In this document: piece after piece, positions 26,664 to 27,577 of the stretch
How positions within the stretch are numbered: the first letter of the stretch is position 1
How the letters are laid out: each line of letters opens with the position of its first letter
Assembly: GCF_040938485.1 (NCBI RefSeq)
Contig: NW_027272339.1
Coordinates: forward strand, 434,001 to 498,000
Length of the DNA stretch: 64,000 bases
DNA from: Diadema antillarum
Taxonomy: Eukaryota
Reading direction: 5' to 3'
Notes under the pieces: model-generated
The model's input: only the letters and a program-made list of their open reading frames with translations
Database searches by the model: none
Told to the model about the DNA's origin: nothing
Position numbers and translations under genes: made by a program

Positions 26664-27577
26664 ATGTCTCAGCCGAACATCGCCAACACCTGGTGTCCCG
26701 AAATGCAGAGGACGGTGGAGAAGGTGGACTTGCTGATGTTGACGGAGTATCTAACTCTCATCGAAGTCTTGAAACGGGTGCAAAACGTGCCAGATTCTCC
26801 AATAGACGGTACTCCCGAAGATCCACAGCGCAAAGTGTTCCAGGCGGTTCATCATTTGGACCCAATGACTGTGGAGAGAGTGTACCCTTACGTTGGCAGG
26901 GTGCTCTGGATGAGACCAGATCTCGTCGAGTGCGGTTTTTTCCTGGAGTACATCAAATTTATTCTGAGGGGAGAGACTCAACAACAGCTGGAACAAAGAA
27001 GAGTCAACATAGGGAGACACGTGGAGGGGATAGAGGCCGCTGTGAGAGTGGTCTACAGGGCCTTGGGGCTCGAGACCGGCCTGCCCGACATCGTCTTGAC
27101 GGACCCTCAGTGGAACGTGCTTTAGACGAACGACTGCTATTAACGGTGATAAAGGACACATTTCCTTCCGACTTTCACGCCGTAGACACCGAGACAATCT
27201 TACGCGCATGTCGGACAATTGCAAGCGAGGAACAATTTTCCCGTGTGCGACGAATCAAGCTTCGAGGCAATGAGAGGTTCGACGATTGTATAGAGGCCCT
27301 GCTCAAAAATTGTATAGAGAACCCCAATCATCCCAACAAGTACAAACGTTCGCTGATGGCTCTATGCTATTTTGTCAACATCTACCAATATGCCTGCATA
27401 CCGGACGAGCGGAAAGAGGAATTTCGCGCGCAATTCGTGGAAGGACTCAAACGCTACAAAGTGCGCTGGTCGGAACACGCTCCGAAAATGACTGTTGGAC
27501 TAATGTCGCGATACGTTTTACATTTTTGTCTGTATATGTTGTATAATGTATGGAATGTAGATGTTAATAGAATGTGA
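26664..27577 (+). pseudogene. Polinton accessory gene of unknown function (~304 aa), split by a 1-nt frameshift near 27120
   Basis: The globular-looking frame 26664-27125 (MSQPNIANTW...DPQWNVL*) continues in the -1 frame (LDERLLLTVIKDTFP...NVDVNRM*). Adding one T to the CTTTAG run gives ...AAC GTG CTT TTA GAC GAA (NVLLDE) and one continuous ORF. Confidence 0.6.

Follow-up and report, generated by a model that had tools for sequence, protein, structure and literature searches.

An intact two-frame unit at the left end of a Diadema antillarum Polinton, with a predicted Bcl-2-fold domain and a candidate overlapping leader

The window, the whole 64,000-nt stretch of Diadema antillarum DNA analysed here, carries a Polinton whose first gene is spread over two reading frames, here called ORF A and ORF B (together the A/B unit). 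This raises the question of whether we are looking at one gene broken by a frameshift, as the initial annotation had it, or at an intact unit, and what its products might be. The position of the unit as first gene of a Polinton was confirmed, the element being bounded by AGTAGT/ACTACT ends and a 6-bp duplication. It had also been placed inside the left TIR; this had to be corrected, since the TIR stops near 26445 (an inner edge set from copies with a whole right end) and the unit starts ~220 nt past it. The element and the features flanking the unit are as follows.

25511..39606, Polinton with AGTAGT/ACTACT termini and a 6-bp target duplication
25511..26445, left TIR of the Polinton, ~940 nt, beginning AGTAGT, with the 6-bp target duplication outside it
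27768..28856, + strand, rve integrase with chromodomain, the next gene after the A/B unit

Pfam searches identified an rve integrase with chromodomain, adenain, an A32-type packaging ATPase and pPolB. The features that define a Polinton or beta adintovirus (TIRs, 6-bp duplication, integrase, pPolB, ATPase and adenain) were all found in 25511–39606. The putative capsid genes of the window Polinton gave no Pfam match and were assigned by position. The gene order is integrase, penton, cupiennin, hexon, adenain, Adintoc2, gasderminX, FtsK and PolB, with three small genes named by synteny, and it matches that of a beta adintovirus drawn in Fig S2 of PMC8502044. The closest named homologues of both ORF A and ORF B are annotated in Diadema sea urchins. 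An integrase search of the genome returned 1830 candidates (150 scored), including many near-identical intact copies in several families; judged from these 150 of 1830, the genome is very Polinton-rich and shows recent activity. The window copy itself is internally deleted in its right arm (38613–39606) compared with other copies, and has lost most of the N-terminal part of pPolB, the PC4-like gene and the inner part of the TIR.

The two frames were found as first described, ORF A stopping at CTT-TAG and the -1 frame (ORF B) staying open to 27577.

26664..27125, + strand, ORF A, 153 aa, all-helical, with no family or fold match and not Adintoc5-like; dN/dS 0.10
27120..27126, + strand, junction CTT-TAG-A, where the ORF A stop overlies the Leu-Asp codons opening the B domain (basis: three families)

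The initial annotation accounted for this arrangement by a T missing near 27120, through mutation or sequencing error, in a single ~304-aa gene. Our results make such a lesion in the window copy hardly credible. CTT-TAG-A followed by B in the -1 frame was observed in 35 of the 40 fetched loci (L001–L040), namely 26 loci of family 1, one of family 2 and eight of family 3; these three Polinton families share the layout and are 49–100% alike in ORF A. Because the same layout recurs in 35/40 loci and three families, the apparent frameshift is no lesion. The other five loci comprise two that are rearranged, two of a decayed family and one ended by a contig edge. In protein searches family 2 (one copy, L027) was 88% alike in A and 74% in B, family 3 was 49% alike in A and 29% in B, and the decayed pair was ~31% alike. 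No indel was present within 26664–27577 in any of the 20 near-identical copies fetched, and in both diverged families the change of frame likewise falls at CTT-TAG-A. Public sequencing runs gave the same picture: contigs of runs X2, X3 and X4, one of them 94% alike, pass the junction without gaps, with the qualification that this material consists of contigs, that family 2 is not among them and that the X3 and X4 contigs are perhaps not independent of the assembly.

Intact fused copies did not turn up. All 40 scored DNA matches (of 61 candidates) cover the full 914/914 bases, and protein homologue searches found no relative with whole A and whole B in a single frame. The search for longer homologues of B gave one match among 127 candidates, a gene-model chimera with hexon, and that for longer homologues of A one match among 7993 scored, a chimera with a host gene; the search for near homologues of B gave 0/273. 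Related loci were absent from viral contigs (4 scans), metagenome contigs and phages, and in 15 loci of other Polinton families of the same genome the stretch upstream of the integrase contained no match to A or B at E ≤ 1 among 910 frames.

Comparison of families 1 and 2 showed that silent and third-position changes track the A frame until the stop and the B frame directly after it. The dN/dS values were 0.098 for ORF A and 0.188 for B; ORF A and the B domain are both under purifying selection. Families 1 and 3 are saturated at silent sites (pS 0.75).

27122..27481, + strand, predicted Bcl-2-fold domain, residues 1–120 of the 151-aa B part, six helices; dN/dS 0.19
27488..27574, + strand, C-terminal helix, mildly hydrophobic, followed by DVNR, which is invariant in 4/4 families

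The resemblance of the C-terminal half to Bcl-2, first proposed by eye, gained support as a prediction from structure comparison. The B model was built from 3 sequences and was confident in one of five cases (pLDDT 76; the others 38–44); it has six helices plus the C-terminal helix. When it was compared with 48,161 chains by VIA-align, the top 27 of 27 rows were cellular or viral Bcl-2-fold proteins (rmsd 2.9–5.3, 92–112 residues aligned, about model residues 4–120), with Z from 5.7 to 7.8, where 7–8 is middling by the tool's own scale, and the first unrelated row followed at Z 5.5. Bcl-xL gave Z 7.8 (rmsd 3.3, 104 aligned), DPV022 Z 7.5, F1L Z 7.3, A49 Z 5.2 and N1L Z 4.5; a second comparison, with Bcl-2, gave Z 8.2 (rmsd 3.2, 103 aligned). 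In Foldseek the top nine PDB rows belonged to the Bcl-2 family, none of them at E ≤ 0.001 (E > 0.1), while in BFVD herpesvirus A9 came first with no row at E 0.001, and E1B-19K models were among the weak rows (E 1.3–2.3).

All five peptides originally quoted were located in the -1 frame, at 27194–27553, and the Bcl-2-like segments map, in the order expected, to helices 2, 4 and 5 and the last part of 6. Canonical motifs are lacking: LxxxGD (BH3) is absent from B, as is NWGR (BH1), whose lack of conservation had been noted correctly. Profile support, which had been proposed as a check, was not obtained: no Bcl-2 family (PF00452) was found by Pfam at E ≤ 1 for 4/4 B sequences, a PDB sequence search with B returned nothing, and hhalign of B against three host Bcl-2 frames gave a probability of 0.1. 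A Bcl-2 family search of the genome located 21 host-type places, none of them at these elements. Residues 112–124 of B were modelled as coil with low confidence, and Trp116 within them is invariant in 4/4 families; in the Bcl-2 fold, short helices 7–8 (the BH2 region) come after helix 6. The B domain contains no conserved internal Met.

Judged from this comparison, the B domain probably adopts a Bcl-2 fold. That B has some other fold, and that a single fortunate model of a widespread helical bundle produced the match, appears rather unlikely to us. Such a reading could point to the single confident model in five and to the absence of any sequence-level signal in Pfam, PDB sequences and hhalign. 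Against it, the top 27/27 rows, from cells and viruses alike, share a single fold along the entire domain, whereas the same-sized ORF A model, also confident, gives scattered unrelated rows instead; moreover, the slot occupied by B is already known for viral Bcl-2 genes. Given the predicted fold, binding of pro-apoptotic Bak/Bax/BH3 proteins would be the most likely function, and we hold the case for it to be evenly balanced; a Bak-like BH3 exon is located at L062:431-523. Alternatively, and more tentatively, B may be an NF-kB-inhibiting Bcl-2 fold of the poxvirus type.

The proposal that B ends in a tail anchor was borne out only in part. A C-terminal helix is indeed predicted, at B residues 125–148, but it carries charged residues in families 1–3 and is mildly hydrophobic in three of the four families (best 19-residue Kyte-Doolittle means of 1.1, 1.1, 1.1 and 1.7), which makes an anchor doubtful. 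A groove-binding or peripheral helix would be as likely as a membrane anchor. E1B-19K is likewise described as having no obvious anchor (PMC5691641).

The ORF A model was confident (pLDDT 85, five models in agreement) and, like that of B, bears out the all-helical structure predicted for both halves. Nine relatives were detected at E ≤ 0.001 among 1.84 billion representatives. Fold comparison gave a best Z of 6.3 in scattered unrelated rows with no Bcl-2 row in the top 50, and BFVD gave no row at E ≤ 0.001, although absence from such match lists does not establish a new fold. A single ~304-aa gene joining an unknown N-terminal domain to a Bcl-2 part in one frame was not supported. By its position in the first unit, ORF A is likely an early host-modulating protein. 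Several C-termini of the ORF A family have the form Ser/Thr-x-Leu/Val, into which the window protein does not fit; ends of this kind resemble class I PDZ-binding ends of viral proteins. The identification of ORF A as Adintoc5 was rejected, with CxxC present in 0/9 ORF A sequences and an hhalign probability of 0.2 against four motif-bearing (CxxC...H..C) proteins from other families of the genome, which were named Adintoc5-like by eye against sequences in the supplement of PMC11071296.

We also observed a feature that the earlier reading had overlooked: the -1 frame is open without a break from 26540 over the full length of ORF A, with AUGs at 26540 and 26654.

26654..27577, + strand, long form of ORF B (-1 frame, putatively translated), 307 aa if begun at AUG 26654 or 345 aa if begun at 26540
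26654..27121, + strand, 156-aa leader of ORF B, overprinted and rich in Arg, Gly and Ser; 64% of its residues are disorder-promoting

The leader, with disorder-promoting residues at 62–64%, gives no sign of being constrained in sequence itself (-1-frame dN/dS of 3.3 and 1.3), and 4/4 variants over A alter it, three of them silently in A. Its lack of stops is another matter. Over A, family 1 has -1-frame stops at 0/29 at-risk sites, compared with 196/653 in a control of 11 genes. Family 3 has 0/28 after the -1-frame AUG, preceded by five stops within 10 codons before it; this span was fixed after the AUG had been seen, and the whole of A gives 5/33 (P 0.11–0.15). Shuffling of own codons gave P 0.0018 and 0.001 for families 1 and 3, with no depletion in the +1 frame, and the longest open -1 run is 152 codons here vs. 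35–90 in 12 other genes. The signal in family 1 is weakened because stops of this kind are scarce in ORF B as well (4/32 in family 1 and 3/30 in family 2); relative to other A/G-next codons of the same gene, the depletion in family 1 has P 0.034.

The open -1 frame begins with an AUG in 25/26 family-1 and 8/8 family-3 loci. A protein of a fourth family, P0014 (313 aa), which comes from another source, has the same leader and domain in one frame and starts at the same Glu-Trp-derived AUG; it is a biased sample, called as a protein because it is open. In family 2, by comparison, the single copy has three stops in the -1 frame over A (3/25 at-risk sites) and an intact B domain, and a relative in run X2, 82% alike, has an apparent -1-frame stop near 26798 (seen by eye, maybe in a decayed copy). 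The outcome across families is mixed: an alternative frame open from an AUG beyond chance is found in families 1 and 3 and in P0014, but not in family 2. Taken together, the stop-free -1 frame and P0014 favour an overlapping gene reached by leaky scanning over a fusion.

26590..26597, + strand, A-rich site corresponding in position to the TATAAA of the two other families (at -76 and -71 relative to the ORF A AUG), a putative promoter element
27624..27629, + strand, AATAAA past ORF B; no other AATAAA/ATTAAA occurs in the unit once the ORF A AUG is passed

In three families there is a single AATAAA, located after B, and the stretch from the A AUG to where B ends contains none; A and B are likely on one mRNA because the only AATAAA follows B. 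The balance tips modestly towards an intact first unit in which ORF A overlaps a -1-frame B with a Bcl-2 fold, expressed by leaky scanning through the overprinted leader. The mRNA would start ~45 nt before the A AUG and ~30 nt after the TATA-like site, and in families 1 and 3 the AUGs of A and B would be the first two that it contains. The presumed B AUG, in a weak context, would lie 10 nt before the A AUG in the window and 32 nt after it in family 3, and ribosomes would reach B by leaky scanning from the AUG near the ORF A start. The leader would serve mainly as a run-up to the domain and is likely disordered, and the B protein, going by its predicted fold, may dampen host cell death or innate signalling. 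Family 2 needs another route because of the three stops in its -1 frame over A. Leaky scanning, recoding and splicing are not mutually exclusive, and an A–B fusion could arise only via recoding or splicing, both of which rank below the overlapping gene.

Programmed recoding, which we consider unlikely, would have ribosomes pause at CUU-UAG and rarely move by -1 (or +2), giving a ~300-aa A–B fusion beside free A, which would be the protein first proposed but produced with no lesion. It would also account for family 2, and several features of the junction are consistent with it. CTT-TAG-A is identical in three families though the flanking residues differ, selection switches frame exactly at the junction, the last residue of most whole ORF A homologues is Leu, Val or Ile, and the distance from the last conserved block of A to the first helix of B is by eye the same in families 1 and 3, where the stops are 3 codons apart. 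However, the common letters may be no more than B's Leu-Asp codons together with the A stop, and in the decayed further family ORF A closes with AAC-TAG and helix 1 of B already begins upstream of that stop. The classical signals of -1 frameshifting (X XXY YYZ plus downstream structure) were not found: no slippery heptamer is common to the three families (one occurs at codon 91, in family 1 only), no stimulatory structure was detected on either side of the junction (z -1.1 to +1.5), and no stable structure lies 3′ of the stop. Recoding also leaves the stop-free -1 frame across A unexplained. A combination in which stop-triggered recoding at CUU-UAG (-1/+2, with no classical slippery site) operates alongside the overprinted-leader route, so that one 900-nt unit would yield three products tuning host cell death, seems quite unlikely, although if true, an animal DNA virus lineage would switch between a small helical protein of new fold and a Bcl-2-carrying fusion.

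Alternative splicing of this type occurs in early units of adenoviruses and polyomaviruses. Here, TTTAG would serve as 3′ splice site, and part of A would be joined to B from a donor within ORF A. TTTAG|A suits an acceptor, and family 2 has a consensus-like donor, GG|GTGAGA, at codon 104 in the right phase; on the other hand, family 1 has no donor of at least 4/6 and family 3 none inside A, no phase-1 donor is common to all three families, and pyrimidines of the acceptor are below 9/15 in all three. Since splicing, too, leaves the open -1 frame unexplained, we regard it as improbable. An IRE1-type splice motif was not found in the A/B unit.

Less probable again is that B is a separate short gene started near the domain, by reinitiation after A, a near-cognate start or an internal promoter, with the open -1 frame a by-product of codon use. 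Family 2 does have an AUG in good context 4 codons before the B domain, where the window has GTG, and third positions of ORF A are rich in G/C (0.62–0.67). Family 3, however, has neither AUG nor GTG at that place, the 100 nt before the stop contain no TGGGA, which is a TURBS-like motif, and shuffles preserving codon use still gave P of about 0.001–0.002 in two families. The overlapping gene with an overprinted leader thus stays our preferred reading.

The claim that the gene was unrecognised holds for these sequences but not for their kind, as Bcl-2-like genes are already annotated in the same slot of beta adintoviruses. Bcl-2 homologues are mentioned in adintoviruses by PMC8502044, of which Fig S2 (Starrett 2021) places the label 'Adintoc5:Bcl2' before the integrase of a beta adintovirus, and the supplement of PMC11071296 includes uAdinto16464 and uAdinto17795, with a Bcl-2-like gene directly before the integrase. 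Among those listed in these sources, the Bcl-2-like genes agree with B in the slot before the integrase, the gene order and a divergent domain of about 150 aa, the sequences having been compared by eye. They differ in their neighbour, a CxxC/His-Cys Adintoc5 where the window has the unrelated ORF A, and the listed proteins start at their own Met, whereas B in the window has no start of its own and a leader overprinted on A. For Polintons we found neither ORF A nor a Bcl-2 gene in an overlapping frame described in print, in a literature whose supplements were covered in part and may hold these families. While the kind of gene is known, the sequence lineage, the partner ORF A and the overlapping layout appear new.

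The adenovirus E1B-19K/E1B-55K unit is also a left-end unit with a viral Bcl-2 protein. In E1B, two proteins are made from overlapping frames via two AUGs, the second having a disordered N-terminus. Neither window frame resembles E1B-55K. The E1B Bcl-2 protein is encoded by the upstream of the two frames and retains BH1/BH2 (PMC5691641), whereas the one here is encoded by the downstream frame and is motif-less. The overprint itself has a parallel in polyomavirus ALTO, a low-complexity frame over a conserved gene, as here. Polyomavirus middle T and paramyxovirus P/C are further overprinted low-complexity frames over conserved genes. In contrast to ALTO/middle T and P/C, the window overprint is continued by an ordinary folded domain lying clear of ORF A.

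A fold without recognisable sequence identity is likewise found in poxvirus F1L, DPV022, M11L, A46, A49 and N1L; PMC5691641 reviews viral Bcl-2 folds that lack motifs and have roles in apoptosis or NF-kB signalling. In F1L the N-terminal extension is unstructured (PMC5691641), and the B leader is likewise an N-terminal extension, but to judge from PMC5691641 the poxvirus extensions do not overprint a second gene, whereas the window leader does. Unlike the poxvirus Bcl-2 folds, the window C-terminal segment is weakly hydrophobic and ends in DVNR.

The A/B unit is intact and selected, in elements present in dozens of near-identical copies, and its treatment as a frameshifted pseudogene, or its splicing into host genes (P0001, P0002), is an annotation error that is likely to recur. 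A motif-less predicted Bcl-2 fold under purifying selection supports an infection-like Polinton cycle that has to hold off cell death, and the unit offers a testable handle on such a cycle in an invertebrate. With overlapping frames at its left end, the element would have a counterpart of adenovirus E1B, while ORF A adds a confidently modelled protein family with no fold match.

Several rearranged copies were seen in the course of the analysis. In the diverged copy L030 (G000:C633) a deletion fuses residues 1–116 of A, in frame, to a B part without helix 1, and in P0011 the first 32 residues of A are joined to the -1 frame. L032 (G000:C1237:15300-20500) is a single case in which ORF A is in frame with the exonuclease and polymerase part of pPolB, the fused frame being 957 aa from the ORF A Met. 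The idea drawn from L032 that ORF A serves via the TIR as the N-terminus of pPolB was rejected, because eight other right ends are without ORF A and whole right ends carry their own PolB N-terminus. In L033, L039 and L040 (G000 C895, C743 and C574) a second left arm, inverted, lies 9–31 kb from the first, and paired matches suggest the same on C66, C36, C554 and C1149. These second arms, of 3–6 kb or longer, carry the TIR, the A/B unit, the integrase and more, and in L033 and L040 are joined to part of the right-arm genes; they resemble the template-switch defective genomes of protein-primed replicons and may have a comparable origin.

In other Polinton families of the same genome (L068–L071, L073–L076 and L079), an Adintoc5-like CxxC/His-Cys protein with a long acidic leader precedes the integrase, and some of these loci also have a PC4-like gene. 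In a further family (L066, L067 and L078, at about 2570–3000), a Cys-rich frame with a CALACC-like motif overlaps a long frame before the integrase and is possibly another overlap.
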